Below, piece by piece: positions 27,661 to 50,534 of a stretch of 64,000 nucleotides of DNA. Location: NCBI RefSeq assembly GCF_004010195.1, contig NC_057758.1, positions 5,765,997-5,829,996 on the forward strand. The letters run 5' to 3'. The notes under the pieces are model-generated. The model ran no database searches. It worked only from the letters and a program-made list of their open reading frames with translations, and had not been told where the DNA came from. A program made the position numbers and the translations under genes. The DNA is from Chiloscyllium plagiosum (lineage: Eukaryota). The stretch's first letter is position 1; the number at the start of each line of letters is the position of its first letter.

Positions 27661-28092
27661 TAAACCCCATGTCTTCCGATGCTTCTTATTTTGCTTCTTC
27701 ATGTCGTGACTGTCAGACATATTAAGGTTCCCACAGGAGACCGCAGGAGACGCCGATATCAGAACAATAAAACTAATAAATGCGACACATAAATGAAGAG
27801 CATGAGGAACTCCATTGCTTTGGACTTTGCCATTTTAGGCAGTTTTGTCCTGTTTTGTCTGACATATATTGCACATTTTCTACTTGTGCGAATTTCAGGT
27901 GACAGCTATTCGGTCGGTTCAAATCCCAATGACCCAAAATTTATTCTGCAGTAAATCGGATACATGCTGCAACTCTTGCATTCATGCTCGAATACGGGCA
28001 TTTATGCAATGGCACAGACAAAGTTGACAGGTGATTTCAAAGATTCTTTCAGATACTTCACCAAGAGTATTACGACATGTCCCATACAGTGA
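27661..28092 (+). pseudogene. GPR139-like class A GPCR pseudogene fragment (TM5-TM7 and C-tail)
   Basis: Single frame from 27661 reads *TPCLPMLLILLLHVVTVRHI..RRRRR..CDT*MKSMRNSIAL.FAILGSFVLF..DPKFILQ*IGYMLQLLHSCSNTGIYAMAQTK, aligning with the intact receptor at 45279-46183; TAA stops at 27661, 27790 and 27952. Confidence 0.92.
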
Positions 28093-28529
28093 GACCGGCT
28101 GAATAACTAGAAGTGACTTCCACACTTCACTAAAGCAACACACATTCTTATGAATCTGCAGCTCATAAATTCTGGCACGTGTAAAGGCAATGATCGACAA
28201 ACTAACCCACAGATCTCTTTATATATTTGTGGTAGCCACCTATGACATAGATATTGTTTCTCAAGTTATCGCCTCTTCTGCCAGGCGCAAAAGCTCACAA
28301 TAAGAAGATTTCCGTTTGGAATTGATTTGATTGATCCATGTGTAAAATCTGGAGGGGAGGATATCCATCGTCTCTGTTAAAATCTTTAAGATAACTTTGT
28401 TTTGCAATTTTACAAAAAAATGTACTCAAGCACGCTAAGATTGCCCCTTCTCCTAAACGTCAGAGAAAAAAATTTGGCCAACAGAAGATTTTCTTTCTCG
28501 TGATCATGACAGGAAAGATCTACTCCTTC

Positions 28530-31410
28530 GAATGCACTGACAATTTTCTCTCCCCGTATTAAATTGTGAAAAGATAAGTCCCTGGAGATCTTAAAACGAA
28601 ACACAGAACCGTTTGCATTGCACAATATTCTTTGTGACATAAGCTGTAGCATTTGCACTTCAGGGACTGCAACAGATTGCAGCAGTGTATTTGTCCAATT
28701 TTGTTCCCAGAGGTTTTGATTCGAGGAGACGGTTGGAGTTTCGGTCGGAGCAAATGCACTGACAATTTTCTCTCCCCGTATTAAATTGTGAAAAGATAAG
28801 TCCCTGGAGAATTTAAAACGAAACACAGAACCGTTTGCATTGCACAATATTCTTTGTGACATAAGCTGTAGCATTTGCACTTCAGGGACTGCAACAGATT
28901 GCAGCAGTGTATTTGTCCAATTTTGCTCCCAGAGGTTTTGATTCGAGGAGACGGTTGGAGTTTCGGTCGGAGCAAAAATAAATCAGACGTTTGTACATAC
29001 TGGAGGGCAAGCAACGCAATCCCAGTAAATCAAAACAGAAAATCATCAGGGTGGTGTCATGAGACCAAAGATATTTCGCTCATATCAACGATCGTCCCTC
29101 CATCAAAGTGGGGATTTGATGATTTCACCATGTGACACAAGCAGGAGTCTCATTTGGTATGGAAAATGTAATTCCTCGTATAAAAGCGAGGAATTGGACA
29201 CCCCAACAGAAGTTTCTCCACTCTCTATGTATCCTTCTCATTTTCTCCGAGGTTCTTCTGCTTTTTTATCATTTTGTTTTCCCGTTGCTCTCAGTCTAGC
29301 CTCCATGCGCCTCCAGACAGATCGCGTCCTGGTCTCTCGGTGGCTCTCAGTATGGTCTCTCCGCGGCTCGTGACGTGTCCTGAACTGATATCTCGGCAGC
29401 TGTCAGCCCGATCTCTCGGCAGGATGTCAGTTGGTCTCTCGAAATTTCGTGGCAGTATTTTGGCTCGGCATAAGAGTGTATCCTGCAGAAGTATGTACCC
29501 TGAGGCACAGGGAGTTATCGATGAGGCTGCAATTTCAAAAGCACTGATTCTGTGTGTAGTGGTGGCGTCGAAGGCAGACAGCAGAGCGAGATGCACGGAG
29601 GAATCATCAGTTGAATGGTTAACATATTCCTTTAATACCTCGTTTAATCCGTGAGAAACGTTATTGTAAACTGTTGCCAAATTCTTTAATTTTCTAATGT
29701 TCTATGAAGGAATACTTCGCTTTGTAACTCATGTTTCTCCTCGTACTTTGTACCGGAACTCTTTTGTGCCGAGGTAACTTGCATCTGAGATGGAATCATG
29801 TATGCCAACATTATCCAACTTTCACTTTACACCTTCACTTCAATACATAACCTCACGTCGCAAATAAAATCTGAAAAGCGAGTTCACCAGTAACTAGAAC
29901 AACAGTTATTTTGCAGCAATAAATATGACATGGCCATGCAAAATTGAAATAGTGGCCAAGGTATAAAGGGAACACGGCGCTTAAAATAAGTGTAGCACAA
30001 ACATAGCAAAGCTCTATCGCTCTGAAAGTTGTTGCATTTTAAGAAAAGAGAGTGCAGACCTTCAAGCGCACAGTCAAAGGGGATTGACGCAGGCAGGAAA
30101 TTGAAGTTGTCAAAACAATCAGATTATCCATGATGTTATTACATTTTGGAACTGGTGTGTCAGCCGGACAACTGCCATTGGTTTTAACTCATTAGTTGCA
30201 CTCTAGTACACAGTTTAACAATATCAAAACATAATTTTGCCAAATATGACCGAGTGTGTTATTGGAAAAAAAAGCTTTTTTTCCACATTGCCACCTGTGT
30301 GCAAGCAACGGAGTGAACAGTTTTAGAGATGGATGGAGGTTTGGGTGTTAGGTGACAATTAGATCAGCAATGATTTAATCGACCGGAAGTGGAAGTTGAA
30401 TTTACTTCATGTTCAACTCCTTGAACTCCACGTTTTGTAAAACATTTATCTTACATTACCCTAAAATAAATATTGATTTCAAAATCCATATCTTTTCATG
30501 AGGCCTCTGAACCATTTCTGAACAAGGTGTTTGTTCCCTCATCGGCGGCCTTTCATTTTTTTTGTTTCTACATTCCACTCGCTGTAGCGAGCCCGCTCGG
30601 AGGCTGTCTTCTGAAATGAGCCGATTCTAATCTTCGTGGAGCATCTTATTAAACATTCCCACATTATTGTGACATCGCTATCTCTCCAGGGAGCCGGTGT
30701 CCAGCAGAGCCAAGTAGGGGCGATGCCTCCGTGAAATTCTAAGTGGGCTATCGGGATAAAATGAAAATAGATTTGAAGTGGTGAATGAAGGAGTCCACCT
30801 TCCACGATGAGCCACACTTCCTAAAGGGATTTATGAAACGCATCCTTCCACTTCAATTACTCTCTCTCCAGGCTTCCATATATATATTTTTTTTAAATTG
30901 ACTGATGGAATTCCAATATAAATATGCACTATCTACTCCATCGAAAGTTCGGATGAATTTTTAAACCTGGTTATGGGCAACTGGGAGTTTTGGTGTTCAT
31001 GTTAACAACTTCTTCTCCTCTAAAACAACAACCGCAAAATACTCAATGAAAGTCAAACGCAAATAAAATATAGAGCAAATCACTTCGCACCTTACACAGT
31101 TAAAAAAAAAACACTCCCACAGTTAAAAAAAAACACTCCCACAGCATATCTGCACAAATATAAATCAGAGTAAAGTTTATTCTTCTTTGTTCTGGTTGAA
31201 CCTCTAGGGCCAGTACAGTTCGGTGTTTGGTGCTAAGAAAACATTCGGCGTATTCGCCTAAAATCGCGATTCCCTGAATGCAGATACAGGACTTGATTAC
31301 ATTCAAAGTAAAAGAATCCCTGACACGGTTCCACTGTTCCATCAAACAGCCCCATCCCTTGTTCAGAAGTAAAACAGAAGAAATAATGAAATGCAGAATG
31401 ATACAGTATA
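28530..31410 (+). repeat. Paralogous block copy 2 (3' flank of the + strand GPCR pseudogene)
   Basis: Roughly 90% identical by eye to 60334-62730; more distantly related to 15770-18590 and 35033-36150. Confidence 0.92.
28531..28974 (+). repeat. Near-perfect 222-bp tandem duplication
   Basis: AATGCACTGACAATTTTCTC at 28531 and 28753; only a few mismatches seen. Confidence 0.95.
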
Positions 31411-34400
31411 TACAACATTGAACATTACAGCGCAGTGCAGGCAATTTGGCCCTCGAAGTTGCGCCGACATGTCATATCAATCTGAAGCCAATCTAACCGG
31501 CACTATTCTGTGTACGTCCATACGCTTGTCCAATGACGATTTAAATGTACTTAAAGTTGGCGAAAGTACTACCGTTGCAGGCAAAGCATTCCATACCCTT
31601 ACTACACTCTGAATAAAGACACTACCTCTAACATCTGTCCTATATCTATCACCCCTCAATTTAAAGCTATGCCCCATCGTGCTCGCCGTCACCATACTTC
31701 GAAAAAGGCTCTCCCTGTCCACCCTATCTAACCGTCAGGTCATCTTATATGTCTCTATTAAGTAACCTCTCAACCTTCTTCTCTCCAACGAAGACAGCAT
31801 CAAGTCCCTCAGCCTTTCATCGTAAGACATTCCCCCCATACCAGACAATATCCTAGTAAATCTCTTCTGCATCATTTCAAAAGCTTCCACATCCTTCTTA
31901 TAATACGGTGACCAGAACTGTCCACAATACTCCAAGTGCAGCCGCACCAGAGTTTTGTACAGCTGAAGCATAACCTCATGGTTCCGGAACTCGATCCCTC
32001 TATCAATAAAAGCCATAGCACTGTATGCCCTCTCAACAATCCTGTCAAACTGGGTGGCAACTTTTAAGGATCTGTGTACCTGGACGACGAGATCTCTTTG
32101 CTCATCTACACAACGAAGAATCTTACCATTATCCCAGGACTTTGCATTCCAGTTACTCCGACCAAAGTGAATCACCTCACACTTGTCCGCATTGAATTCC
32201 AATTGCCAGCTCTCAGCCCAGCTCTGCAACTTATCTATGTCTGTCTGTATCCACAACTCCACCAACCTTAGTGTCGTCTGCAAATTTACAAACCTACCCC
32301 TCTACTCCCTCATGCAGGTCGTTTGTAAAACTGACGAACAGCAGTGGGCCGAAAACCGATCCTTGCGGTACACCACTAGTAACTGGACTCCAGGATGAGC
32401 ATTTTCCATCAACAAGCATCCTCTGTCATCTTTCAGCAATCCAATTACTGAACCAAACTGCTGTATCTCCTACAGTCCCATTCCTCCGCATTTTGTACAA
32501 TAGACTATTTTGGTGAACCTTATCGAAAGCCTTGCTGAAATCCATATACACCACAGCATACGGTTTACTCTCATGTAAATGTTTGGTCACCTTCTCAAAG
32601 AACTCAATGAGGTTTGTGAGGCACGACCTATCTTTCACAAAACTGTGTTGACTATACCGAATCAAATTATTATTTTCTTGATGATTATAAATCCTATGTC
32701 TTATAACCGTTTCCAACACTTTATCAACATTTGAAGTAAGGCTCACTGGTCTATAATTACCAGGATTATCTCGACTCCCGTTGTTCAGGGGAACCACGTT
32801 TGCTAACCTCCAGTGTTCTGGCACTGTTTCTGCAGACAATGGCGATTTAAATATCAATACCAAAGGCTCAGCAATCTCCTCCCTGGCTTCCCAGAGGATC
32901 CTAGAATAAATCCCGTCCACCACAGGGGACCTATCTATTTTTACACTCTGCAGGATTTCTAATATCTCTTCCTTGTGAACCACAATCCCACCGAGTCGAG
33001 TAGCCTGTATCTCCGCATTCTGCTTGACAACATTGTCGCTTTCTGGAGTGAATACTGTCTAAAAGTATTCATGTAGTGCTTCCCTTATCTCCTCTGACTC
33101 CACACACAACTTCCCACTACTATCCTTGATTGGCCCTAATCTAACTCTCGTCATTCTTTTATTCCTTATATACTTATAGAAAGCCTGAAGGTTCACCCTG
33201 ATCCTATCTGCCAACAACTTCTCATGTGTCCTCCTGGCTCTTCTGAACTCTCTCTTTAGGTCTTTCCTGGCTACCTTGTAACCCTCACGTGCCCTAACTG
33301 AACCTTCACAACTCATCCTAACATAAGACTTATTCTTCCTCTTGACCAGAGATTCCACTTCCTTCATAAACCACGGCACCCGCGATTTCCAGCTTCCTCC
33401 CTGCCTGACAGGTACGTACTTATCTAGGACACTCAGGAGCTTTTCCTTGAATAACCTCCATAGTTCTAATGCGCCCACCCCCTGCAGTTTCCATACCCAT
33501 CCTATGCTTCCTAAATCTTGCCTAATCGCATTTTAATTGCCTTTCTCCCAGCTATAATTTTGCCCACTAGTATACACATACCCCTTTCTATCACTAAAGT
33601 AAACATAACAGAATTGTGATCGTTATCACCAAAGCGCTCACCGACTTCCAAGTCTAAAACCTGGCCGGGCACATTACACAGTACGAAATCTAATGTGGCT
33701 ACTCCCCTTGCTGGCCTGTCGACATACTGTGTCAGGAAGCGCTCATGCACACATTGGACAAAATCTGACCCATCGATAGCACTTGTACTATAGTGTTCCC
33801 AGTCAATATTTGGAAAGTTGAAATCCCCAATGACAACTACCCTGTCTCTCTCACTCCCATCGACAATCATCTTTGCTGTCCTTTCCTCTACATCTTTGGA
33901 ACTATTCGGAAACTCCCAACAGGGTGACCTCTCTTTTCCTGTTTCTATCATCAGCGCATACTACCTCAGTTGACGAGTCCTTTTGCAACTGTAATAGTCC
34001 TTGAACAAAATTCAACACCTCCCCCTCTTTTACCATCTTCTCTGTTCTTAATGAAACATATAAATTCTGGAACATGCAACAACCATGCCTGTCTCTGCTC
34101 TACCCATGTCTCTTAAATGGCCACAACTTCGAAGTCCCATGTACCAACCCATGCTGCAAGTTCACCCACCTTATTCCGGATTCTCCTGGCGTTGAAGCAG
34201 ACACACTTCAAACCAACATCTTGCTTTCTGGTGCCATTGTGCGTCCATGAAACTTTATTTCGAACCTCCGTACTCTCAAAATTTTCTTTACTCGAACTAC
34301 AATTTTGGTTCCCCTCCACCTGCTGGATTAGTTTAAACCTACCAGAATAGCCTTGGCAAATCCACCCCCACCCCCCCCCCCCCCGCATCACATTGGTACC

Positions 34401-34705
34401 CCTCTGTTTTAGATTAAGACCATCCTGCTTGTAGTGGTCCCACCTACCCCAGAAAGAGCCCCAATTATCCAAAAATCAAAAACCCTCCCTCCAGCACGAT
34501 CCCTGGAACCACGTGCCTATGTGGACTACGACATGTGGCTGCTCCCCATCCCCCTTAAGTATCCCCAAAACACGATCAGCGACATCAGGAACCCTGCCAC
34601 CTGGGTGCCAACACACCAACCTTGAGTCTCTCTCGTCCCCACAGAACCTCCTGTCTGTCTCCCTAACTTTGGAGTCCCCAATGACTACTGCTCTGTTCCT
34701 CTTCT
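31410..34705 (-). mobile_element. CR1 LINE, 5'-truncated (ORF1 C-terminus, whole ORF2 span, 3' UTR), decayed
   Basis: ORFs 31477-34472: KCVCFNARRIRNK, VIGDFNFP, NYRPVSLTS, YMDFSKAFDKV, LEYCGQFWSP. Confidence 0.95.
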
Positions 34706-35032
34706 GAGAGGAAAATCTACCAAGAAGAATGGATAACTGGCTGGATTTTGAAACTTCAGAGTTAATTTTCCTAAATCATAATCGGCTTATTTTTAGCGAA
34801 CCAATACCTTGGAATGGCACTTAAAGAAAGAGCTAAAAGTAAGAATTTGGAAGCAGGTTGTGGTTTTACTTTTCGCTGTTGGACTGAAAGAATACAAGTG
34901 TTAATTTTTACTTTAAAAAGTGAAATCTGGGATAGTTCTTTGCCTCTCGAAATTTAAAAGATTGTGCTGCAAGATGAGTTTCTCTGTGTATCTGGTTTAA
35001 ATTAGCAGAGGAGCTTTCCCCTTGTCGTAACA
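34706..35032 (+). mobile_element. Possible LTR 3' fragment
   Basis: Ends ..CCCCTTGTCGTAACA exactly where homology to the paralogous block begins. Confidence 0.4.
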
Positions 35033-36150
35033 TAATAAATGTGACTTGGCCATGCAAATTCAAGATAATGGTTTATGGTATGACTGTGATATGGTACTTC
35101 AAATTAGTGTATCATAAAGACAAACAAGGATCTCGCACTCCAATTTTTTAAAGAGAGTGTTTTCAGCCTTTCATTTATAGAGGCAAAAGAAATCCGGGCA
35201 GGCAGGAAGTGAAGTTGACACCACAGACAGATCATCCGTGACCTTATCAAATTTTTGAACTGTTATGTGAGCCGGAGAACCTACATTAGAAATAAGTCAA
35301 GCAGTCAAGCATTAATAAGCATACCAAAAGGTAATTTTGCAGAATGATCCCCAGCTAGGTATTCGAAATTTCAAAACCTTCATTCCAGATTGAACATAAG
35401 TAGCGAAGGTTTGGTACATTGGATGGAAGTGTAGGTTTAAGGTGACAAATCGATAAACGACGATTTTAACGATGGAAAGTCCATGCTAGAGTTACATAGT
35501 GATCACCCCGTCAACGACATATGGTTATTAAACAGTTTATTGCACTTCCCTCTCAAGCGTGGTCTATCAATTTTCACGTTATTAACAGATTCAATGTCTC
35601 AAACTTTTCTCCATTTCTGTACAAGTTTTTTCACTCATCTTCCGACTTTTCTTTGTTTACTTTCCCACAACACACTAGCTGTGACGAGCCAGCTCGGAGT
35701 AAGTCGTCTGAAATAAGGAGATTCTATTCTTTTGCCTATGTATTCTTAAAATTATCCCCGCCCTACTGAGAAGAACTAAAACACCCCAGCTCCCCCAAAC
35801 ACAAGTATCCTCAAGGCATTCATAAAAATCGCGTCTTCCCTCTCGAAGGACCCCATCTCCTGACTTATATCTTTTTTTAATAGCTGCTGGGATTAGAATA
35901 TAGTTATTCACCATGTACTCTGTTGGAAGTTCGAATGATTATTAAAATCTGGATATGAGTATCGGAGAATGTGGGTATTTTTGCCAAGTGTTTGTACTCT
36001 GAATAGCAACTGCAGCAAGATACTCGTTTCATGTCGAAAACAAATAAGATACAGATCAGAGCACTTTCCAAATTGTTCAATCATAAATTCCCAGAATATA
36101 TCGGCACAAATTACATTCCGAGTAATGCTTTGTCTTCTTTGTTCCCATCG
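35033..36150 (+). repeat. Paralogous block copy 3 (partial, divergent)
   Basis: AATAAATGTGACTTGGCCATGCAAA, GCAGGCAGGAA, AAGTTCGAATGA, CAAATAAGATACAGA and GCACAAAT..GAGTAA..TCTTCTTTGTTC, collinear with 29920-31200. Confidence 0.8.
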
Positions 36151-36199
36151 GACGTTCTCGATATGTTCTGATGGGATGTTCAAAATTCAAAGTTTATGA

Positions 36200-38060
36200 T
36201 AGATTTAATTAAAAATGGACAAGGACTAAAGCATTGGGGAAACTATGGCAACACACAAGCAAAATGACAATGCTATTAAACATGCCACAGAATCCAGACT
36301 GGCTGCAGCGACCAACAGAAAGTTTGCAATCAGCATGGCAATTGAAGACCTAAAATATTAATCTGAATTTGGGGTTGAAATGAATCAATTCGATCGCAAA
36401 CATCGAGGTGAATCCCAGTCAAAGGGACGCCTTATAGTGTTATTTGGAAGAGGCTACGTGCACCGAGCACCTGCAGTGATGGATATCGAAGGATCATCCT
36501 GCAATCAACATGGATACCAATGCCTCGTTTGGTCCAATCGATCAGCCTGTATCTTCGCCCACCGTGTTCTGTTACATTCACGCGCAGATATATGTTCGGA
36601 CTGCACGGAAATTTGCAAAAGCTTGACTGAATACTTACCAGTTTGGGAAGTTCGATGTTTTGTTTCGGCTGATGTGAAATAACTATCATCACCCCCCTCA
36701 CTGAACAACTGCAGGTTCACAGTAGGTTAAGTTCAGCATAATCAAAAATGGAACTAACCACAGGTGATCCCCATAATGTAAACGCAGAGCAGACAAATGC
36801 GCCAAAAGACGGGCTCATGTAGGAGTTTCCTGGTGGGCACCCATAGTTAAGCAGCCAATGCTGTCAGTCTAAGTCAGTAAAACATAGAGGACATTAGACA
36901 AGCACAACGCCGTGATGATTCCTTAAAAGCAAATTATGGGAAGAGTTTACCCAGATGCCCCTGCCAGGTGGAAGCGTTCCCTGCACGTTGGTGACTGGTT
37001 ATTTCTAAAATCATGATTGTGTGTCCCCTCTATTGAAGACATGAACCAAATTATACATAGATATCATTATAGGCACGTGCACCAGGGAAGAAAGGCCACT
37101 ACAAAATGATTAAAATCAGTGTGTTGGTGACCCGAGTTGCATAGAGATGCAGCACATAATAAAGGGAACCGTTTTGTCTCCACCTAAAACAATACAGACA
37201 ATTACACGCGAAGGGGAGAACTTAGAAGTGGAAGGGCACCGGACAATACTTGAAATTCACTTCACAGGTCCCCTGCCAACTTTTGGCAATGGACATATCT
37301 GCATTCTGATCATCATAGGTACTGTGACAAAATGGTTCGATGCTTTCCTTGTTATTTAAATACAACCAAAGCAACAGCATATATCATAACAGAGCAGGAT
37401 GGGGTCATCCCCGCAGTAACAAGTCAGATCGATGAATCCATTTCAAAGGCTGAGTCATGCAAATTGTGATAACGAAATTCCACATTGTATACTAAACAAT
37501 TCAGTGGGATCGTGGAAAGCATGAAGCACAACCAAAAATGGATGATAAGGAAGACGGTGCAGCAGAATAAGAAAAGCAGGGAGACAATAATTCCGTTTGG
37601 CCTCATGGTGGTATGCATCACCATCGTCTGATTTCTAGAATAAACCTCGCACATTGTCATGACAGGCCGACACCTGAAGGGAGACGAATACCTGTATGGC
37701 CTCGACCTCACAGAACCAGAATTCACTGTCAGGGTTCACAGATAAGCAGTGCAGGCTCACACTTAGCACATCAAGACCACTCAGCTAAATGCGCCTGTCA
37801 AGTTAAGGACGAGAAGGAACGTGAGCAAGGCGTACTTCGATAGCAAAGTTTACCTTTTTTTGTATTTGATCAATCTCTAGAAAGTGCCGTTTTCTCATCT
37901 GCTATATGCGTCAGTTTCGTTGCTCCAGTATATGTTGGGCTTAGCTTGAATCAGCATGGTCCTGCAGTCACTGCCTTTCATGTTGTGATCCATCACAACA
38001 GGACCAAAAGGAGGTCCTTGGCCTGGAAGGACTGTCAAAAACATGATGGATTTCAAGAAA
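36200..38060 (+). mobile_element. Decayed LTR-retroelement/endogenous retrovirus-like pol (RNase H and integrase)
   Basis: IEGSS; ICSDC..ICKSLTEYLPVWEVRCFVSADVK; RADKCAK; HQG..W.ELHRD; LEIHFTGPLP..ILIIIGTVTKWFDAF; FSGIVESMK; VMTGR; AYFDSKV; APVYVG. Confidence 0.8.
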
Positions 38061-38614
38061 AATGGACAAATAGGAAAGAAGTCTGGATACCTAAGGTGAG
38101 CCTTAACAAAAATAACAGTGCTATGACGCATGCTGCATCATCCAGACAGGCTGCAACTACCAACAGCCAGTTAGCAATGAACCCGGCAGTTGAAAATCTA
38201 TCACATACACCCGAATTTGGTTGGAATGTCATCGTCAGGGCGAACGGAAACGTTGAGATGTGTAACAGATACATGATCGCATTACACTCTGAAATGGAGG
38301 GTTCTACATGCTCCCAGCACCTGCAGTCATGGACATCTAAGGACCGCCCTGCAATCAAAATGTCAATGCCTTTTTCGGCCCGATTACTCAGCGTGATCTG
38401 GCCTGATTGACCCATTGGTGAATGGTGGAAATTCATTCAGATGGGCATGAATACCCTTGAGTAAAAGAATTGAGACCAATCCACACTCTAGGCGGTCAAT
38501 AAAGAATAAACACACAGAAGAAATTGCATCGGAATTCTTCGGGAGAACATCAAATGAAAAGGCGAAATGGAGCAAGGCCAAGTTCAAATGTGGTGGTAAG
38601 TGATTATCAAATAA

Positions 38615-39884: not shown

Positions 39885-40070
39885 TAAAAACAATGACTGC
39901 AGATGCTGGAAACCAGATTCTGGATCAGTGGTGCTGGAAGCGCACAGCAATTCAGGCAGCACCCGACGAACAGCAAAATCGATGTTTCGGGCAAAAGCCC
40001 TTCATCAGGAATAAAGGCAGAGAGCCTGAAGCGTGGAGAGATAACCTCGAGGAGGGTGGGGGTGGGGAGA
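39885..40070 (-). mobile_element. Short Penelope-terminus insertion carrying a hammerhead motif, with 13-bp target-site duplication
   Basis: Flanked by AATTCCCAATTGG (39872-39884) and AATTCCCACTTGG (40071-40083). Confidence 0.8.
39981..40008 (-). ncRNA. Minimal hammerhead ribozyme motif (best preserved copy)
   Basis: Reverse complement CTGATGA-A-GGGC-TTTT-GCCC-GAAA-C-ATC: both core boxes, perfect 4-bp stem II, NUH triplet. Confidence 0.7.
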
Positions 40071-40734
40071 AATTCCCACTTGGAGTACGGTGGTCAGATG
40101 TAATCAGCACACCTTGGGAAACATATATTGAACTTGGGCAAAGTACGATGTTCTCTTCTGTGTATGTCAACAACACCCAAAGAACTGTTCAAATCATTAA
40201 TTCCATGAGTTGGTGCATACCTTTGTCAACCTGAACATTGCAAAGGTACACCTGAATCATTTTGTTTAACGCTAGAAGCATCCAAAGCGTTGGGAAGGAA
40301 TGTAGCATAACTTAACGACACTATTTCTTGGATTTCAGGACTGATGTTATTCAGAAGACTACAGAAAGTATGTCCTGCTTTGTGGAGAACTTCAAAAGCT
40401 GTGGTGTCATCTGATCGAAATCATTAATCAAATAGAATATTTAAAGAGATGGCATATCCACACATTGGGGTCTCCAGAACTGAGGGCATGATCTGTGATA
40501 TATGAGGAGACTGTTCAGGCGAAATGTTCGGCAGAGCTGCTACACGCAAGGCGTGCAATATGTTTGGAACACTCTGGCACAAATGGCAGACGTTGCTGCA
40601 TCAATGCTCATTTCAAATCTGTGCGAATGATTTTTGTATCACGCTAAGTTTTTTTTAGGGGTATGAGGTATAGAAATTTGCCTATAAACTATTAATTTTG
40701 GCCAAAATGCGGCAGAAATGTTTTATGTATAGGA

Positions 40735-42800
40735 ACTTAGAGTCATAGAGATGTCCAGCATGAAAACAGACCCTTCCATCAAACCCATCTATGCAGACCA
40801 GCGATCCCTAGCCAATCTGGTTCCACCTGCCAGCAATAGACCCACATTCCTCCAAGCCCCTCCTCTTGATAAGAACATCCAAATGCCTCTTAAATGTTTC
40901 AATTCTGCCAGCCTCCACCACTTCATCTGGCGGCTCATTCCATAGAAGTACTATATTCTGTGTGAAAACGTCGCCCCTTAAGTCTCTTCTATATCGTGTC
41001 CCTCTCACCCTAAACCTACGCTGTCTCTGGACTACCCAACGCCGTAGGAAAATAATTTGCTTATTTATCCTATCCATGCCCCTAATAATTTTGTGAACCT
41101 GAAGAAGGTCACCCGTCAGCCTCCGATGCTCCAGGGAAAACACCACCAGCCTATTCAGCTTCGCCCATTAGCTCAAATCCTCCAACACTGGGAAAATCCT
41201 TGTAAATCTTCTCTGAACCCTCTTATACAGCCCCAACATGACATCCTTATTCCTGTATTCAATAATCTGACCATGAAACGAAAGCATACCAAACGACTTC
41301 TTCACTATCCTATCTACCTCCGACTCCACTTTCAAGGAGCTACGAACCTGCATTCCAAATCTCTTTGTCCAGCAACGCTCCCTAGGACCTTACTTTTAAG
41401 TGTATAAGCCCTGCTAAGATTTGCTATCCCAAAATGCAGCATTTATCTGAATTAAACTCCATCTGCCACTTCTATGCCCATTGGCCATCTGGTCAAGAAC
41501 CTGTTGTAATCTGAGGTAACTATCTTTGCTGTCCATTACACCTCCAATTTTGGTATCATCTACAAACTTACTAATTGTATCTCTTATGATCGCATCCAAA
41601 TCATTTATGTAATTGACAAAAAAAAGTAGAGGGCCCAGCATCGATCCTTGTGGCACTCCGCTGTTCACAGGCCTCCAGTCCCGATAAACTACCCTCCACC
41701 ACCACCATCTATCTTCCTCCTTTTAGCCAGTTCTGTATCCAAATGGCTAGTTCTCGCTGCAGTCCGTCAGATCGAACCTTGCTAATCACTCTCCCATGAG
41801 GAACCTTGTCGAACGCCTCACTGAAATCCATATAGATCACGTCTACCACTCGACCCTCATTATCCTTCTTTGTGACTTCCTCAAAAAAAGCTCAATCAAG
41901 TTTGTGAGACATGATGTCCCACACACAAAGCCATGTTGACTCTCCCTAAGTAGTCCTTACCTTGCCAAATACATGTACATCCTGTCCCTTAGGATTCCCT
42001 CCAACAACTTGCCCACTACCGGCGTCAGGTTCACTTGTCTATATTTCCCTGGCTTGTCCTTACCACCCTTCTTAAACAGTGGCAACAGATTAGCAAACCT
42101 CCAGTCTTCCAGCACCTGAATTGTGACTATCGCTTATATAAACATCTCAGCAATGGCCCAGCAATCCCTTATCTAACATGCCACAGAGTTCTCGTGTACA
42201 CCTGATCAGGTCCTGGGGAACTATACACCGTTATGCGTTTCAAGACATCCAGCACTTCTTCCTCTGTAATCTGGACATTTTGCACGGTGTCACCATCTAT
42301 GTCCCTACAGTCTATATCTTCCATATCCTTTTCTTCAGTAAACACTGATGCATAATACTCGTTTAATAGCTCCCCCATTTTCTGCGGTTCCACATAGAAT
42401 CCGCCTTGCTGATCTTTGTAGGACCATATTTTCTCCCTACTTATCCTTTTGTCTTTAACATATTTGTAAAAACACTTTCGATTTTCCTTACCTCTATTTG
42501 CCAAAGCTAAATCATGCCTCCTTTTGGCCGTCCTGATATCCATCCTCAGTATACTCCTCATTCCTTTATACTCTTCTAACGATTCACTCGTTCTAAACTG
42601 TCTTTAACTTACACATGCTTCTTTCTTTTTTCTGAACCCAACCCTCAATTTCTCTAGTCATACACCATTCCTTATCCCTACCAGCCTTTCCTTTCATCCT
42701 AAGAGAAAAATACTTCCTCTGGATTCTCGTTATCTAATTATTGAAGGCTTCCCATTTTCCAGCCGTCCCTTTACCTGCGAAGATCTGCCCCAAATCAGCT
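40735..42800 (-). mobile_element. CR1 LINE 3' portion, decayed
   Basis: ORFs 40808-42561: SPGPDQVY, SGVPQGSMLGPLL, KFVDDTKIGG, RRLTGDL. Confidence 0.92.
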
Positions 42801-43630
42801 TGTCATCTCTGATGACAAGAACTTCATTTTAACTTGACGATCCGAAATCCCTATGTTTAATTTCGAGACAGGAGGAGACCACTAGTGTGCAGACTGAGGG
42901 GAACGACATTTTTGAAAAGTTCTAAGAGGTCAATCATGCACCATTGCGGACTGGCAGGAGTGTTAACGAGATGGGGAGACTGCTGAAGGACGAGGGAAGA
43001 CGGAAAGAGTGGACAATGAAGTGACTAATCGAGCACAAGGACATACAATTTGAGGTTAGGAACGTTCATAGGATGTTTACATGCGCAAAGTATATTCTAA
43101 ATTTGGAAGGTTTCGAAAGGAGGGCGAGTTGATTGGAAAGGTCGTGGCTGCAGACAATATTATTAATCGTTTTGTCTAATGATTGTCTAAAAATCAACAT
43201 ATTTTATTTACATATCTACATTTAATTGTTGTGTCCATCAACATTTAATAACCGAATTACTGTCCAAGCTTTCCCAACAAGACAGCCGACTGCAATGTTA
43301 AAATGGAAAACAATGTGGAAAAATAGGATGGCATGCAATTTGATTGGAGGAACAGGCGCATAGACCAAGTTCTAAATTAGAAAGAACGTCGGAGTTTTTT
43401 ACGCGTTGATAGTCTTTGAGCCCTGGTTCGGGATTTTCATCAGGTTGGTTTGCAATTTCACTTGGAGGATAGGAAGAAAAATGAAATGTCAACATTCATT
43501 TTGAGCGTGCTATAATGAAAATCTGTGGATTTCCTGCTAATGCTGTTTAAGGCTCCAGTCCGACCAGATTTGGAATATCGTGTGTCAATTAATCTAAATC
43601 ATCGTTGGGAGTCAGGGTATACAATGGGAA

Positions 43631-44539
43631 CTAGAAGCTGCTGCTATTTTGCCTTTTGATTATATGAGTGATCAGACTGAAGGGAAATATCACAAATTTT
43701 TTGAATTGTCCTCTGAACCTATTCTGTGTCACGACGTAGATTCCAGTGTTTGTGCAGCAACTCAGGAGCTGTAGAATAAATCCTAATTCTTGGACATACA
43801 CAGGCACATAAATCAAATAGCCCAGATTACCATTCGTTCAAGCATTGCGTACACGACAAACACTGCCCACAGCAGGATGAAGTTGTCTGAAATCAGAAAC
43901 AGAAGAACAATTGATTTTCTTCGGTTCTCCATCTCCGTGTCTCTGGGACACTCCCCATTGTTGTGAGCCAGGAGTCTCCTGCGGGCTCTGCTGCTTACTA
44001 CAATGTGTCTGACGGTGAAAATGTTGAGCTGCAGAATCAGAACGAATGGGAGACAGGGTGAGAGAATGTAGTGAACAATTTCAATTATGGCCCATAACTC
44101 TAAGTTGTCAAGTATATACCACAAAAAATAGGATGATTAGATAAATCATAATTACTGTTATACATAAAATACCAGCTGATATTATTTAAAAAGCTCAGTC
44201 CAGTCACTGTTCCGAGAACCACCGCCGCTGTTTTCTCATTACAATATTTAGTTTTGAACGTGTGACAACGAATGGCTACCAAGCGGTCGAAGGTGAATGT
44301 GACGGTGAACAAGACAGAGCAATCGGATGCTGCATAAAGCAGGACAGCATGAATGTTGCACGCATCTATATCCTCCATGAAAGTGAAGACTTCTGGATAA
44401 ACAATTGGAATATGTCTCAATATCAGGTCAAGGATGACCACCAATAAATCTGCGACTGCCATGGCCATCAGATAGAGAGTGACACATCTGGAGAGTCCAC
44501 ACTTCCCACGGAATAGAATCACAATCGTCACTGTATTAA
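43631..44539 (-). pseudogene. Frameshifted duplicate of GPCR exon 2 with intact splice acceptor
   Basis: TTTTCCACAG acceptor retained at 44540; net 7-nt deletion near 44110 and 1-nt deletion near 43830 split the frame into ORFs 44100-44531, 43813-44124 and 43631-43816. Confidence 0.93.
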
Positions 44540-44807
44540 CTGTGGAAAAGGAAACTACGATATAACACTAAACGATTGATGAGGGGAAAAACTGCAATAT
44601 TCAATTTTCATTTCATCCATAAGTGGTGCACAGTCATGACTGTGTTGTCCATTCAGAAGGCATAATCCTCAAAGAGTACCTTCCAAATTCGCATTCTCTA
44701 CTTTGACGTAGCTAATTATTGTATACATAGTTGCAGGAGAAAGTGATGGAACGTGTGGTGTTGGACATGCACAGCCAGTCTGGAAGCATCCGAGGAGCAA
44801 GAGAGTC

Positions 44808-44835
44808 GATATTTCGAGCATAAACTCTTCATCAG
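44808..44835 (-). ncRNA. Minimal hammerhead-like motif (duplicate copy)
   Basis: CTGATGA-A-GAGT-TTAT-GCTC-GAAA-T-ATC. Confidence 0.5.
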
Positions 44836-45278
44836 CAATGAGGGAATATCCCAATGGGCTGAGAGATCAGTGGAAGGGGATGGACTGTGGGGAAGGTAGC
44901 GGGGGATGGGAGAGGTAGATGGATATGAGGTATTATGGTGATATGTCAGAAAGGAGGTTGACCGGAATTGGTAGGAAGCAAGATGGACAGTTTGGACAGT
45001 TCAGAGTTTGGTGTCGAGTCAGAATGTTGGCTCTGGAATAAATTGGAAAGAGGGATGATGGCGATTAATGAAACGCGTGAAATATACATTTATCCTGTAT
45101 GGTTGCAGGGACCAAAGGTGGACGATGCGGCAGTATTCGCCCACATGTTGGGTGGGTCCGTGGATATACTGCTAATGTTGTTTAAGGCTCCAATCCGACC
45201 AGATTTGGAATATCGTATGTCAATTAATCGAAACCATCGTTGGGAGTCAGGGTATACAATGGGAACTAGAAGCTGGTG

Positions 45279-46183
45279 CTAATTTTGCCTTTTGATTATA
45301 TGAGTGATCAGACTGAAGGGATATATCACCAATTTTTTGAATTGTCCTCTGAACCTATTCTGTGTCACGACGTAGATTCCAGTGTTTGTGCAGCAACTCA
45401 GGAGCTGTAGAATAAATCCTAATTCTTGGACATACACAGGCACATAAATCAAATAGCCCAGATTATCCATTCGTTCAAGCATTGCATACACGGCAAACAC
45501 TGCCCACAGCAGGATGAAGTTGCCTGAAATCATAAACAGAAGAACAATTGATTTTCTTCGGTTCTCCATCTCCGTGTCTCTGGTACACTCCCCATTGTTG
45601 TGAGTCCGGAGTCTCCTGCGGGCTCTGCTGCTCACTACAATATGTCTGACAGTGAAAATGTTGAGCTGCAGAATCAGAACGAATGGGAGACAGGGTGTGA
45701 GAATGTAGTGAACAATTTCAATTATGGCCCATAACTCTAAGTTGTCATCACTCAATTCTATACCACAAAACATTGGATGATTAGATAAACCATAATTACT
45801 GTTATACATGAAATACCAGCTAATATTATTTAAACAGCTCATTCCAGTCACTGTTCCGAGAACAATCGCCGCTGTTTTCTCATTACAATATTTAGTTTTG
45901 AACGTGTGACAACGAATGACTACCAAGCGGTCGAAGGTGAATGTGACTGTGAACCAGACAGAGCAATCGGATGCTGCATAAAGCAGGACAGCATGCATGT
46001 TGCATACATCTATATCCTCCATGAAAGTGAATACTTCTGGATAAACAATTGGAATATGTCTCAATATCAGGTCAAGGATGACCACCAATAAATCTGCGAC
46101 TGCCATGGCCATCAGATAGAGAGTGACACATCTGGAGAGTCCACACTTCCCACGGAACAGGATCACAATCGTCACTGTATTAA
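45279..46183 (-). CDS. GPR139/GPR142-like class A orphan GPCR, exon 2 (TM1 end to C-terminus)
   Basis: Open frame with AVADLL (TM2), C at top of TM3, FTFDRL (DRY variant), ECL2 Cys, PCLPF (TM5) and CCTNTGIY (NPxxY variant); acceptor TTCCTTTTCCACAG at 46184 in phase 1. Confidence 0.95.
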
Positions 46184-46384
46184 CTGTGGAAAAGGAAACT
46201 ACGATATAACACTTAACGATTGATGAGGGAAAAAGTGCAATATTCAATTTTCACTTCATCCATAAGTGGTGGACAGTCATGACTGTGTTTTCCATTTAGA
46301 AGCCATAATCCTCAAAGAGTACCTTCCAAATTCGCATTTTCTACTCTGACGTAGCTAATTATTGCATACATAGTTGCAGGAGAA

Positions 46385-47720
46385 AGTGATGGAACGTGTG
46401 GTGTTGGAGATGCACAGCCAGACTGGAAGCATCTGAGGAGCAGGAGAGTCGACATTTCGAGCATAAACTCTTCATCAGCAATGAGGGAATAGCCCAATGG
46501 GCTGAGAGATCAATGGAAGGAGATGGACTGTGGGGAAGGTAGCGGGGATGGGATAGGTAGGTGGATATGAGGTATTATGGTGATATGTCAGAAAGGAGGT
46601 TGAACGGAATTGGTCGGAAGCAAGATGGACAGTTTGGACAGTTCAGAGTTTGGTGTCGAGTCAGAATGTTGGCTCTGGAATAAATTGGAAAGGGGGATGA
46701 TGGCGATTAATTAAACGCGTGAAATATACATTTATCCTGAATGGTTGCAGGGAACAAAGGTGGACGATGCGGCAGTATTCGTCCACGTGTTGAGTGGTTA
46801 GATGTTTGGTGTGGAGCAGGCCCACGATGTGCATGACCTCGGCGGGGTTGGAGTGGGATTTAAAGTGTTTGGCTACAGGGCAATAGGGTATTTAGTGCAT
46901 GTGTCTCAGAGATGATCTCTGAAACATTCTGCAAGTAAGTGTTCTGTCTGCTTCAGTTGGAGGAGAGCACATCGACAGCAACGGACACAGTATATGATGT
47001 ATGTGGAAGTCAAGTTAAATCTCTGTTGGTTGTGGAAGGATCCTTCGGGGCCTTGGACTGTGGTGAGTATGGAGGTGTGGGAGGATGTTTTGTACTTTGT
47101 CCGCTGGCAAGGCATGATACTGGAAGAGTATGGTCGGTTGGTGGGGGTCTTCGACCGAACGAAGGAATCCTGGAGTGAATGGCCCCTGTGGCGCGCAAGT
47201 CAGGGTGGGGCGAGAAATATATTTCTGGTGATGGGGTCTGTTTGAAGGTAGTCGAAATGGTCGAGGATGACGCGTTGTAATTGCTGGTTGTTGGGACAGA
47301 AGGTGAGGACCAGGGGGGCTCTGTGCATGCTGTGATTGGATGGGTGCACAGATGCACAAAAGAGGAAGAGAGGAACTGGAGGGACACTTCGAAAAATGGT
47401 GCGGGAAATTGCTTTGTGTTGAGTCTGTCAACGGAAATGAAGACGGAGAGCTACAGAAAAGAGAGAGATGTGGGCGAGATGATCCAGTTGAATTTGAGGT
47501 CAGGGAATAAACTGTTATTAAAATTCATGAACTTTTAAAACTCCTGGTGGGAGCACGATGTGGCGTTGATACAGAGGAAATGGCTGGAAATGGTGCCGGT
47601 GCAGCTGTGGAAAACACACTGTTCCCTGTATTTGAGGAGGAGGCAGGCACTGTCGAGAACGATACTGTTGCCTTTGGCTACCAATCAAGCCAGCAGACAA
47701 AAAGGCCACAATGATAAATT
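46385..47720 (-). mobile_element. Penelope-like element 3' portion in the GPCR intron
   Basis: Minus-strand RT end and GIY-YIG remnants (VQGPEGSF..FNLTSTYIIYCVRCCRC); terminus with hammerhead motif. Confidence 0.8.
46451..46478 (-). ncRNA. Minimal hammerhead-like motif in the GPCR intron (sense strand)
   Basis: CTGATGA-A-GAGT-TTAT-GCTC-GAAA-T-GTC; stem I poorly paired. Confidence 0.55.
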
Positions 47721-49680
47721 GGCGCACTAATCTCCACATAGCTGAAAACAGACACCAGCTCACAGACACCTTTTCCGACGGCCCACTCAATCACGAGCTC
47801 ACCTGCCACAACCAACCTCTCATGTCGCAGCCTCAAAACTCATAGTCTGGAGACAACGCACTGCCCGGTTCTATCTCCGACCAAAATTCACAAACCTGCT
47901 GCCCTGGTTGTCCTAATGTCTCTCCCAGCTCGTTCCCCAAAGAACATACCCCAGCATACCTTGGCATCCTTCTGTCCAGCTTGATCTAGGATCTCCCCAC
48001 ATATGTTCGGGATGCCTCCGCCTCCATGACTTCCGGTTCTCTGGCTCGCAAACTTCATCTTAAGACATTCTTCTCTCAAGTCGAAGGCCTCCAAGCCCAC
48101 CGTTTCGTCGTCATACGATGACCCAAATCGCATACTTCCACTGAAACGTTCGTCTGATTGTTTGAAATGGACCTCATCCTCAAAAAAAATCTCCTTTCAA
48201 TTCTCCCACTTCCTCTAGGGAAAAGGAGTAACCATGGACATCCGCATAGGCCTCAGCTGTACATGCAACGTTCTCTGGTACGTGGAACAGTCCATCTTCC
48301 GCAGCTAAACTGACACCAATCCCCTCCATTTACTGCGCTTCATCAATGACTCGTTCGGCGCCAGCCCATGCTCCTGCGAGCAGCACGAACAGTTCATCAA
48401 TTTCACCAGTACCTTGTACCCTGATTTCAAATTCACCTGGACCGTCTCCGGCACCTCTCTCCCCTTGCTGGACCTCTCCATCTTCATTTCCGTTGACAGA
48501 CGCAAAACATACATCGACGTCAAGCTCACTGCCTCCCACAGCTACCTGGACGACACGTCGTCACATCTTGGCATTTGTAAAAACGCTATCCATTCCTTCC
48601 AATTCATCTACCGCACATTGTCCCAGGAGGACTAATTCCACCAAAGAAAATCCCGGATGGCCTCCTTCTTCAATGACTGCGAATTCCCTCCCGCTGGTGG
48701 ATGCTGCTCTCAAGTTCATCTCCTCCATTTCGCTCACCTCTGCCCTTGAACCCTACCTCTTCAATCGGATCAAGGACAGAACTCCACGCTCCTCAACTTG
48801 CATTGTATCAATCTCCACATTCAACGAAACATCTTCAGCCATGTCCGCCACCTGGGATGCATTTCACTTTCCACCGCTACCAGCATTCCACAGAGATGAT
48901 AACCACAGAGACTCCATTGTGAGGGCCACATCATCCACCACCGCATCGCCCACACCTGGCACCTTTCCTGAAACCACAGAGACGAAAACTTGCGCGTACA
49001 CCTTCAAACTCACCGCCGTCCATGGTGCTAACTGATCCTTTCGCATTTGTACAGAGATTTAGCTTTGCTTCCACACACATCATCTGTTGTGTCCGTTGGT
49101 TTTGGTGTAGCATACTCGACATTGAGGCGACAGGAGGGCTACTTGTGGAACGTTTCTGCGAACATCTGGAGGAAACATGGACTAAGTAATCCCATCTCCC
49201 TGTTGCAGAACACTTTAACTCCCCCTCCCAACCGTCAAAAACATGCATGTCCTGGATCTCCTTCACCGGCAGACTCTAGACACCCGATGCCTGGAGGAAG
49301 AATGCCTCAACTTCCGCCCATGGCACCCTCCAACCACACGGGATCGATGCAGATTTCACAAGTTCCTTCATTTTCCCCCATCCCATTCGGCACCCCATTC
49401 CAGAGCCAACCTTACAACTCAGCTCCGCCCTATTGAACTGTCCTAACTTTCCATTTTTATTCCCACCAATTAGCTCCAACCTTCTTTCCGAACAATCTCC
49501 ATCATCGCCCACCTCCATCTGAAAATGGCATTCTCAGTTACCTTCCCCAGTATCACCCATTTATCTCTCAGGCCCCTTGAGCCACCCCTCATTCGTGATG
49601 AGCGGCTGATGCTCAAAACTTCAACTCTCCTCCAATTCGCATGCTGCCAGAACTCCTGTGTTTTCCAGCACCACATATTA
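47720..49680 (+). mobile_element. Penelope-like element (RT and GIY-YIG), decayed, inverted relative to its neighbour
   Basis: RTARFY..KIHKP, GVTM..IGLS, RFIND, YPDFKFTW..LPLLDL, HSYLD, TRCLEEECL; degenerate hammerhead terminus ~49590-49625. Confidence 0.85.
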
Positions 49681-49749
49681 CGACACGGGGTACATTCTAA
49701 CAGTGTCTCTGCGTGAGATTATCTGAATATATGAGTGTTTGCCAGTAAT

Positions 49750-49833
49750 TGTGTGTGTGTGTGTGTGTGTCTGTGTGTGTGTGTGTGTGAGCGTGCGTGC
49801 GTGTGAGCGTGTGTGTGTGTATGTGTGCCTGTT

Positions 49834-49865
<32 letters not shown>
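49750..49865 (+). repeat. Interrupted (GT)n microsatellite
   Basis: Direct inspection. Confidence 0.98.
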
Positions 49866-49866
<1 letters not shown>

Positions 49867-50389
49867 TAATGAGTTCGAAAAAGAGAGAGAGAATTTCTCT
49901 GTCCATTTGGGAAAGAATCTGAAAGGTTTTATGTGAGTGATAGTGGGTGTATGCTCTTTTGCAAGAGCGAGAATCTGTGAGAGAGTGTGTGCGTGTGTCT
50001 ATTTGCCTGATAAGCTGCCCTCTTATATTAAATACCTTGAATCTACTGATGCAGAATTCTGATTCAAATATCATGGTCTATCAAACAAATATAGCAAACT
50101 ACTGCAGAGGATTTCAGGTGATCCTTCCAAATTTGCTCGTAGATAATTAAATCCATAGCCACGAGGATAAGAAGGAGAGAAACAATCCAATTCGTCTCCA
50201 GTTATGACTATGTCGACAATGTAATGTAGTCTGGTCCAACATAGCTTTACACTTCACCATATATACCAAGGGGAGTAAGGACGAATCAACAATCCATCTA
50301 CGAGCAAACGTGCATCAGGAAGCAGTTCAGGACAATAAGTGAAGTGTACAACACAATTTAGAAATTTGATAAGGACACTTTGCACTTAC

Positions 50390-50534
50390 GGGGGACACTG
50401 ACAGCAGCAAGTATTGGGTAGTATATCCTCTCAAAATCCTGAATTATACTTTTGATGTAGAAGTCCCCATTCATCCATAAAAAAGCGACGTAGTATATTT
50501 CAAGAATGTATGGATAGAAATCATTGAAATCCAT
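50390..50534 (-). CDS. GPR139/GPR142-like GPCR, exon 1 (N-terminus and start of TM1)
   Basis: MDFNDFYPYILE..FERIYYPILAAVSVP then C|GTAAG donor at 50389; phase 1 joins exon 2 as ..VSVP-L-NTVTIVILFRGKCGLS, giving a 349-aa protein. The choice of ATG is inferred. Confidence 0.88.

Follow-up and report, generated by a model that had tools for sequence, protein, structure and literature searches.

Among receptors of solved structure, the closest relative of the family described here is human GPR139 (PDB 7VUG and 9M42), of the GPR139/GPR142 pair. As far as the available text of PMC7318219 goes, GPR139 has two coding exons, as does the gene analyzed below, and its human and zebrafish orthologues are 70% identical; the available parts of PMC5430874 and PMC8807744 state that its activation requires R244(6x51), N271(7x38), and H187(5x43). 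Beside GPR139/GPR142, the orphan subtypes GPR210A and GPR210B have been described in coelacanth, gar, and fishes, in a study that mentions neither sharks nor cartilaginous fishes (PMC6504862). The chemosensory repertoires (OR, TAAR, V1R/ORA, V2R/OlfC, and T2R) are like the shark family in the way it appears to work, with many genes, tandem clusters on multiple chromosomes, pseudogenes, a variable pocket, and a conserved cytoplasmic half. The shark family differs in not belonging to any of them by sequence and in carrying an intron in TM1; descent from OR, TAAR, V1R, V2R, or T2R was considered and rejected, with Pfam giving 7tm_1 only and GPR139 as the top solved relative.

The window (the whole 64-kb stretch of DNA analyzed) carries an intact, spliced family member on its minus strand, as the first-pass annotation had proposed. 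Its two exons join into a frame of 349 amino acids with a single stop at the end. Exon 1 (50390..50534, minus strand; 145 nt, 48 codons plus 1 nt) begins with an ATG at 50534, encodes the N-terminus and the outer half of TM1, and ends at a GTAAGT donor. A phase-1 intron of 4206 nt (46184..50389, minus strand), containing dispersed repeats and a (TG)n tract, leads to exon 2 (45279..46183, minus strand; 905 nt), whose acceptor ends ...TTTTCCACAG and whose open frame runs from the inner half of TM1 to the stop. The start codon is supported because exon 1 matches the N-termini of homologues P0004-P0007 (E 3e-6 to 4e-5). Exon 2 scores 63.2 bits against Pfam 7tm_1, compared with a curated cut-off of 30.5, and the class A motifs D2.50, C3.25-ECL2 Cys, D-R3.50, W6.48, and N7.49/Y7.53 are present. 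The predicted structure (pLDDT 92.1, pTM 0.88) is that of an intact class A seven-helix fold with helix 8 and a β-hairpin in ECL2; an earlier model (pLDDT 59) was set aside together with its fold search. We also considered that this gene might be decaying, but it departs from consensus at 18 of 151 conserved columns compared with 8-20 in its own subgroup, and since the count resembles that of the subgroup, decay is unsupported. A motif scan places a candidate polyadenylation signal, AATAAA, at 43203..43208 (minus strand), 3' of both the gene and the copy described next; there were no RNA reads at this site.

The recent frameshifted exon duplicate of the first reading was likewise found. A tandem duplicate (43522..45155, minus strand) of positions 45157-46797 is 95.0% identical to it over 1643 nt and extends from the end of the intron, with its acceptor intact, through exon 2 into the 3' flank; exon 1 is missing. 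Its copy of exon 2 (43644..44539, minus strand) has coding deletions of 7 nt near 44110 and 1 nt near 43829 and has lost the invariant W3.41; exon 1 spliced onto it would terminate after 194 amino acids. Contigs from a second organism (organism A) have only the undeleted state at 43829, at all depth and in both runs, and the 44110 end retains the 7 nt; 0 of the 16 contig pieces shown (of 1422) bridge the junction at 45155. Of the 27 substitutions checked, however, 15 agree with neither copy in the window; organism A is thus probably a different species or is represented by other paralogues, and its contigs neither confirm nor refute the duplicate. When contig depth is summed, the conserved TM5-ICL3 stretch stands ∼100-fold above the intron bins, which fits many paralogues and is not to be taken as a copy number.

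On the plus strand lies a 3' fragment (27664..28092) that runs from TM5 to the stop, only the C-terminal 40% of a gene, with internal stops at 27790-27792 and 27952-27954. It had been described as an old divergent pseudogene, and the ECL3 sequences were quoted correctly. Over 131 amino acids the fragment matches the intact protein at 41% identity (E 3e-19). It is 39-45% identical to each of 388 proteins tried, and the tree does not group it with the subfamily of the intact gene; paralogue distance rather than decay therefore accounts for much of its divergence. The three pieces are not three stages of one lineage, the fragment belonging to a different subfamily, and its long ECL3, once taken as a special feature, has the same length in both groups of single-copy relatives and is of the ancestral type. 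Repeat-derived DNA (27173..27665) lies where the fragment is broken at its 5' end; it includes a 51-bp inverted repeat (27173-27223 and 27615-27665, 94%), is possibly a LINE tail, and in parts matches other dispersed repeats within the window. A six-frame profile search of the 64-kb window with filters off found neither the 5' part of the fragment nor a further family member. Pfam searches of 14 other open reading frames in the window gave only one reverse transcriptase above cut-off, and no other host genes were recognized from open reading frames and Pfam.

We infer that the duplicate exon and the plus-strand fragment are non-functional by-products, and taken alone, the window's three pieces are what gene birth and death ordinarily produces. 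The birth-and-death pattern originally suggested is supported, although the local cluster is small, with one intact family gene in the 64-kb window. Largely non-adaptive proliferation, driven by repeats in a genome that is large and evolves slowly and leaving a few functional genes among many that are redundant or silent, would suit a locus whose surroundings are repeat-rich, in which two of the three pieces are dead, and where the intact copy accounts for 6 of the 15 polarized amino-acid differences from the duplicate. Against it, dN/dS between gene and duplicate is 0.46 (dS 0.066, dN 0.030; p 0.049), and further evidence on both sides comes from the family at large.

Protein searches gave 1893 matches at E≤0.001 among 3146 candidates, and among the matches listed 120 of 120 were from sharks. 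Counted as distinct at <97% core identity, the listed entries comprised 47 of 50 in Heptranchias, 29 of 32 in Heterodontus, and 19 of 20 in Pristiophorus; these counts cover only the top band of matches, so that Heptranchias alone has a minimum of 47 distinct genes; its 50 listed entries lie on 16 contigs with at most 12 per contig. One skate member was named among the matches, and chimaeras were absent among those named. Clustering at 50% identity gave 105 clusters scoring E≤1e-30. Members carry the automatic label "probable GPR139," and everything that a search of the ESM Atlas gave was either a cluster called probable GPR139 or an unnamed invertebrate receptor. This locus is a single outlying site of a class A GPCR family that is large and spread over multiple chromosomes. 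The family arose in elasmobranchs by expansion from the GPR139/GPR142/GPR210 clade, grows by local duplication, and loses members by frameshift and breakage in repeat-rich DNA. The intact gene almost certainly belongs to it, and the proposal of a lineage-expanded repertoire is borne out. We found no description of this expansion in the literature searched, which took in few subscription papers; the term "GPR139" is missing from the main texts of PMC11979771, PMC8455134, PMC10620051, and PMC10116579, and in their available portions, surveys of shark receptor repertoires leave the family uncounted (PMC6368271 and PMC10116579).

When the family profile was searched against solved structures, GPR139 came out best at 53.5 bits (E 1.7e-13), compared with 40.4 for the next receptor, and in this sense the family is GPR139-like, as first described. 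GPR139 and the window gene both lack the proline at 7.50, which is Phe in GPR139 and Thr in the window gene. In contrast to GPR139, the window gene has a TM3-ECL2 cysteine pair and belongs to a multi-copy family, its search as a single sequence returned no GPR139 match at E≤0.001, and, as detailed below, residues of the GPR139 pocket are replaced. These features indicate that it is not a GPR139 orthologue, and a 1:1 orthologue of GPR139 or GPR142, which would have refuted the first-pass annotation, is likewise unsupported.

The two nearest outside groups, with 131 (type A) and 25 (type B) matches, have about one gene per species, and GPR139 is the nearest solved relative of both (E 7.5e-17 and 1.1e-25). 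Type A occurs in teleosts, sturgeon, bowfin, bichir, coelacanth, amphibians, and turtles, with a separate copy in two sharks, and type B in amphibians (20) and sturgeon (1); both are 21-29% identical to the window protein. These roughly single-copy relatives had been overlooked in the first reading, and a name for them, GPR210, probably exists. Both types fit the description of GPR210 by Rinne in 2019, as does the taxon pattern of type A, and these two orphans, the nearest bony-vertebrate kin of the expansion, are probably GPR210 (PMC6504862). In trees that include no GPR139 or GPR142 and are rooted on long unnamed outgroups, the expansion is monophyletic (96/91*), both outside groups are recovered (100/100*), and the window gene groups with sequences from Rhincodon, Stegostoma, and Heterodontus (100/98*). 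Type B is tentatively the sister of the expansion, with 97 SH-aLRT in one tree and 88/74, unstarred, under a mixture model.

To compare ligand pockets we took 25 generic class A positions and used proteins only. The 58 diverse members compared include 54 without a name, which we assumed to be chondrichthyan, and the database models include mis-annotations. In ∼28 disjoint pairs of these members, identity was 0.47 overall, 0.23 in the pocket, 0.40 at other outer transmembrane positions, and 0.67 in the cytoplasmic half, with the pocket less conserved than the outer positions in 26 of 28 pairs. A control of type A orthologue pairs gave 0.56 overall, 0.66 in the pocket, 0.61 at outer positions, and 0.72 in the cytoplasmic half, with the pocket below the outer positions in 8.5 of 28.6. 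The pattern was unchanged without TM5, and entropy in the pocket comparison was 2.83 versus 1.98 bits (p 7e-5). As judged from these alignments, subfamilies share the cytoplasmic half that would face the G protein and differ strongly in the predicted ligand pocket, a divergence that has the signature of a receptor repertoire.

Pocket divergence is also a mark of immune receptors and of relaxed selection. In the subfamily to which the window gene belongs (the top 120 members) the pocket is no more variable than other outer positions (0.95 versus 0.92 bits, p 0.70), and many of the copies may therefore have ligands in common or be redundant; this lack of a pocket excess again suits non-adaptive proliferation. 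On the other hand, such proliferation accords poorly with a cytoplasmic half at 0.67 when overall identity is 0.47, with 151 columns at least 90% conserved among the 120 members, and with the retention of the window subgroup across bullhead and carpet sharks (three genera) with a near-identical pocket, and we consider it distinctly unlikely as the main explanation. Immune sensors, or sensors of microbial metabolites, carried by leukocytes or barrier epithelia and multiplying in the manner of FPR-, MRGPR-, or CMKLR-like families, would leave the same genomic signature of tandem clusters, pseudogenes, and divergent pockets. The predicted ECL2 β-hairpin would suit such a role, as would the structural neighbors of the model, among them the NPY Y4R (Z 25.2, rmsd 2.7, 260 aligned), although the best 50 structural rows, from which GPR139 is absent, are ties at Z 24-25 among peptide receptors and also chemokine receptors. 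By sequence, however, the kin of the family are GPR139-type neural and enteroendocrine receptors rather than chemoattractant receptors, and an immune role seems unlikely.

The pocket of the window subgroup is polar, with D2.57, R2.61, D3.37, E5.42, H5.45, W6.48, E/D7.36, and Q7.42. At the GPR139 pocket positions R6x51, N7x38, H5x43, F3x33, and W6x48, the exon-2 protein has F229, F256, E155, Y68, and W226. Sensing of aromatic amino acids by the window gene, as in GPR139, would agree with the rank of GPR139 in the profile search and with the retained W6.48 and aromatic residue at 3.33, and the acidic and basic pocket residues could hold some zwitterion; but the residues for activation of GPR139, R244, N271, and H187, are here Phe, Phe, and Glu. 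A basic residue at 6.51 is kept in 122 of 122 single-copy relatives, type B also keeping F3.33, W6.48, and N7.39, in contrast to the expansion, where R/K6.51 occurs in 6 and N7.39 in 2 of 178 members. With basic 6.51 in so few members, Trp/Phe sensing by the expansion is unsupported, and with R6.51, N7.39, and H5.42 replaced, the amino-acid sensing by a GPR139-like pocket that had been proposed for this locus is highly improbable for the window gene.

The kinship of the clade with the sex-peptide/MIP receptor might lead one to expect receptors for peptides that are endogenous or come from conspecifics, whether neuropeptides, seminal peptides, or pheromones; the available portions of PMC12208981 relate the clade to AST-B/MIP, sex peptide, and proctolin receptors, and those of PMC8807744 report that GPR139 responds to α-MSH too. 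The TM3-ECL2 cysteines and the predicted ECL2 hairpin would also suit a peptide receptor. It is rare, however, for an endogenous peptide system to require receptors in their dozens or hundreds whose pockets are unrelated. We know of no ligand family that matches such a role, which counts further against it, and we regard it as very unlikely.

The reading we prefer, which we judge evenly poised, is that the family is a repertoire of chemosensory type. Each subfamily would recognize its own charged, water-soluble small molecules or short peptides of external origin (from water, food, or gut contents), and all would signal through a common G-protein pathway in epithelial cells of sensory or enteroendocrine type. 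A bolder form of this chemosensory reading, which we hold tentatively and think rather doubtful, is that sharks and rays have in this family their main class A chemoreceptors, overlooked so far, with dozens to hundreds of genes derived from a GPR139-type nutrient or neuropeptide receptor and one or a few expressed in each sensory neuron of the olfactory organ (or of the taste buds), in the role that ORs and TAARs have in bony vertebrates. If true, it would be an additional, independently evolved family of vertebrate olfactory receptors. Sharks have large olfactory organs. They show a relative paucity of GPCRs (PMC8455134), and the known olfactory families of the catshark are small, with 34 V2R and 4-9 each of OR, TAAR, and ORA in the available text of PMC10116579. 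With no fewer than 47 distinct members in a single species, the family outnumbers these known shark olfactory families, and the old question of how sharks cover odor space with few receptors can be put to a direct test by RNA-seq and in situ methods that already exist. The single-copy amphibian and sturgeon relative with its GPR139-like pocket offers a reference for tracing the path from orphan receptor to repertoire.

The top 50 genes of a catshark olfactory library, as given in the available part of PMC11979771, contain no GPCR, a ranking in which sparse receptors would be missed. In samples of ∼2% and ∼6% of two RNA runs, no reads matched the window gene itself, which non-adaptive proliferation would also accommodate. 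In one single-cell run from a related organism, there were seven paralogue-like RNA reads, 90-95% alike and three of them with a poly-T end, against 0 in the other run, a weak indication that some family member is transcribed in that organism.

Six-frame translation and tblastn found three receptor-like pieces between 27661 and 50534 and no further one in that interval. The first-pass annotation had described them as an intact gene, a frameshifted exon duplicate and a divergent pseudogene, and all three pieces were confirmed. The intact gene lies on the minus strand, with canonical splice sites at exon 1 (50534-50390) and exon 2 (46183-45279) and a phase-1 intron of 4206 nt between them, and the spliced product is a 349-aa reading frame; its exon 1 part matches the N-terminal ends of the nearest shark homologues. 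Exon 1 holds 48 codons 5' of the intron, against 37 in the closest relatives; the N-terminus, extended by these 11 residues, includes a hydrophobic insert as well as another ATG in the same frame (50478-50510, minus strand). Pfam (7tm_1) places the exon-2 protein among the class A GPCRs. Its structure model (pLDDT 92) has seven helices, an ECL2 hairpin and helix 8, and in fold comparison it reaches Z ~25 to many peptide receptors.

A 1.64-kb unit (45157-46797) is repeated immediately downstream at 43522-45155 with 95.0% identity, and this copy carries the acceptor and exon 2 without exon 1, together with two deletions of 7 nt and 1 nt. Between gene and copy, dS is 0.066 and dN 0.030 (Fisher p 0.049), and the 19 amino-acid differences divide into nine on the copy, six on the intact gene and four that are not polarised; Trp-3.41, invariant in 120/120 relatives, is changed on the copy side. 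Judged by sequence, genuine divergence explains the pattern of differences better than errors in the reads would. The copy was not seen in independent read data, where the organism is probably another species or the reads derive from other paralogues. The third piece (27664-28092, plus strand) runs only from TM5 to the stop, contains two internal stops, and starts against DNA of repeat origin that holds a 51-bp inverted repeat; in a quick tree of 86 rows it falls outside the 30-row subfamily, closest to unnamed representatives. Genes of this family are born by local duplication and die by frameshift and breakage.

In a homologue search, 1893 of 3146 candidate proteins reached E<=0.001, and among the 50%-identity representatives searched 105 clusters score E<=1e-30. 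The best 120 of the 1893, on which species and identities were tallied, are all shark (Heptranchias 50, Heterodontus 32, Pristiophorus 20, Scyliorhinus 8, Rhincodon 4, Stegostoma 4, Carcharodon 1, Chiloscyllium 1); identity is 60-69% in all but one of them, which stands at 49%. Within these 120, Heptranchias, Heterodontus and Pristiophorus have 47, 29 and 19 distinct cores at a 97% cut and 30, 26 and 11 at a 90% cut, all being counts in relatives of the window's species; the 50 Heptranchias entries occupy 16 contigs, with up to 12 per contig. One skate family member is named among the matches. The proposed lineage expansion is borne out, with at least 47 distinct cores in Heptranchias alone. 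RefSeq already lists these genes, 119 of the best 120 with the automatic label 'probable G-protein coupled receptor 139'; P0004, a whale shark protein and the closest homologue among the matches listed, is called 'compound eye opsin BCRH1-like'. Terminal extensions of six database proteins (P0132, P0014, P0134, P0026, P0168 and P0251) match transposon DNA of the window and are probably first or last exons annotated in error.

Outside the expansion, two conserved groups, types A and B, stand at 21-29% identity to the window protein. Type A (131 matches, roughly one for each species, with a few species represented twice) occurs in teleosts, sturgeon, bowfin, bichir, coelacanth, amphibians and turtles, and also in catshark and zebra shark, apart from the expansion; type B comprises 20 amphibian entries and one from sturgeon. 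Searched as profiles, all three groups have human GPR139 as their best solved relative: the shark subfamily scores 53.5 bits against it and 40.4 against the next receptor, type B 64.7 and 53.2, and type A 93.9 and 56.8; a single-sequence search with the window protein did not reach GPR139 at E<=0.001. A mixture-model tree of 46 rows recovers the expansion as one clade (support 96/91, starred), types A and B as a clade each (100/100, starred), and type B with the expansion (88/74, unstarred). In it the window gene joins proteins of whale shark and zebra shark first and those of horn shark next (100/98, starred); the quick tree agrees. The deep branching order is provisional, since neither tree includes GPR139 or GPR142 and both are rooted on long, unnamed outgroups. 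Rinne et al. 2019 (PMC6504862) gave the name GPR210A/B to an orphan receptor of three subtypes that coelacanth, gar and fishes have in addition to GPR139/GPR142; the accessible text leaves sharks unmentioned. Types A and B are probably these receptors, and the clade probably has a proposed name (GPR210) in bony fishes already. The zebra shark type A receptor P0357 is annotated as an isoform of TMEM183A, a gene that may be its neighbour. We found no description of the elasmobranch expansion in the literature, on which subscription papers and the catshark supplement may bear; 'GPR139' is absent from the accessible portions of the catshark (PMC11979771), whale shark (PMC8455134) and zebra shark (PMC10620051) genome papers and of a shark olfaction paper (PMC10116579), and the whale shark text describes GPCRs as scarce among cartilaginous fishes (PMC8455134).

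The first-pass annotation had also singled out the longer ECL3 of the fragment. Compared as the span W6.48-N7.49, it is indeed longer, at 46 residues versus 41 in the intact gene (41-42 in 116/120 closest relatives), but it is no special feature, since the span is 44-46 in type A (101/101) and 45-46 in type B (21/21). The long loop is the ancestral state, and the short one is a hallmark of the subfamily to which the intact gene belongs. The fragment's loop resembles those of skate protein P0410 and of P0152, another collected protein.

According to the available text of two studies, activation of GPR139 by agonists and L-Trp/L-Phe needs F109(3x33), H187(5x43), W241(6x48) and N271(7x38) (PMC5430874), and also a basic 6x51, unique to GPR139/GPR142 among the receptors compared (PMC8807744). 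Mapped by profile alignment and motifs, these positions are Y, E, W, F and F in the window protein. With 6x51, 7x38 and 5x43 replaced, amino-acid sensing through a pocket of the GPR139 kind finds no support, and Trp/Phe sensing as in GPR139 is very improbable. Among the 304/412 collected proteins passing a length filter, full-length members of the expansion have R/K6.51 in 6/178 and N7.39 in 2/178; type A keeps R6.51 in 101/101, and type B keeps F3.33, K6.51 and N7.39 in 21/21 and W6.48 in 20/21. The window subfamily conserves a polar set of its own: D2.57 and R2.61 (119/120 each), D3.37 (120/120), E5.42 (116/120), H5.45 and Q7.42 (115/120 each). In type B (P0246, P0389-P0408), an orphan of amphibians and sturgeon, the pocket is nearly invariant (entropy 0.15 bits), and type B is a candidate for a third receptor of aromatic amino acids or aromatic peptides, one that mammals would have lost.

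Variation was scored at 25 pocket positions, which we take to be the generic class A ones. Across 58 diverse members (54 without a taxon name), entropy is 2.83 bits in the pocket versus 1.98 at 45 other outer TM positions (p 7e-5), and 1.0 at 74 inner TM positions. Disjoint pairs of these at 42-58% identity, which share ancestry through the tree, are 0.23 identical in the pocket, 0.40 in the outer and 0.67 in the inner part, and the values are the same without TM5; type A orthologue pairs, as a control, give 0.66, 0.61 and 0.72. Within the 120 closest members there is no pocket excess (0.95 versus 0.92 bits, p 0.70). A mostly neutral proliferation is, on the whole, a doubtful account, immune sensing is unlikely too, if slightly less so, and a role as receptors for endogenous or conspecific peptides is improbable. 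The receptor fold is intact, the cytoplasmic half is common and the pockets are subfamily-specific. Different subfamilies would bind many different ligands and share one signalling route, and would therefore form a sensory repertoire; we give about an even chance to one in which chemosensory cells (olfactory, taste, skin or gut) detect charged, water-soluble molecules. One single-cell RNA run from a related organism yielded seven family-like reads among 12.96 million (~2% of the run), three with a poly-T end, which we assign to paralogues because they are 90-95% alike and only partly aligned; a second run of the same sample yielded none in the portion searched (~6% of the run).

A 3.7-kb block occurs twice in the window (28987-32665 and 60334-64000, 91.7% identity), the second copy beginning directly after an N gap (59834-60333). 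The block is LINE-like in its distal part, and its 136-aa ORF (29294-29701, minus strand) has no Pfam match. A minus-strand LINE with reverse transcriptase remnants spans 31738-33960 (PF00078, 51.3 bits at 32429-33058), and many similar decayed copies lie across the window. Two tandem copies of a 222-bp unit (28531-28976, 98%) sit within a 190-aa stop-free minus-strand frame that has no Pfam match above cut-off. The repeat scan also found a degenerate array of 33/65-bp units at 16335-16728 and two tandem copies of a 283-bp unit at 4416-4982 (97%).
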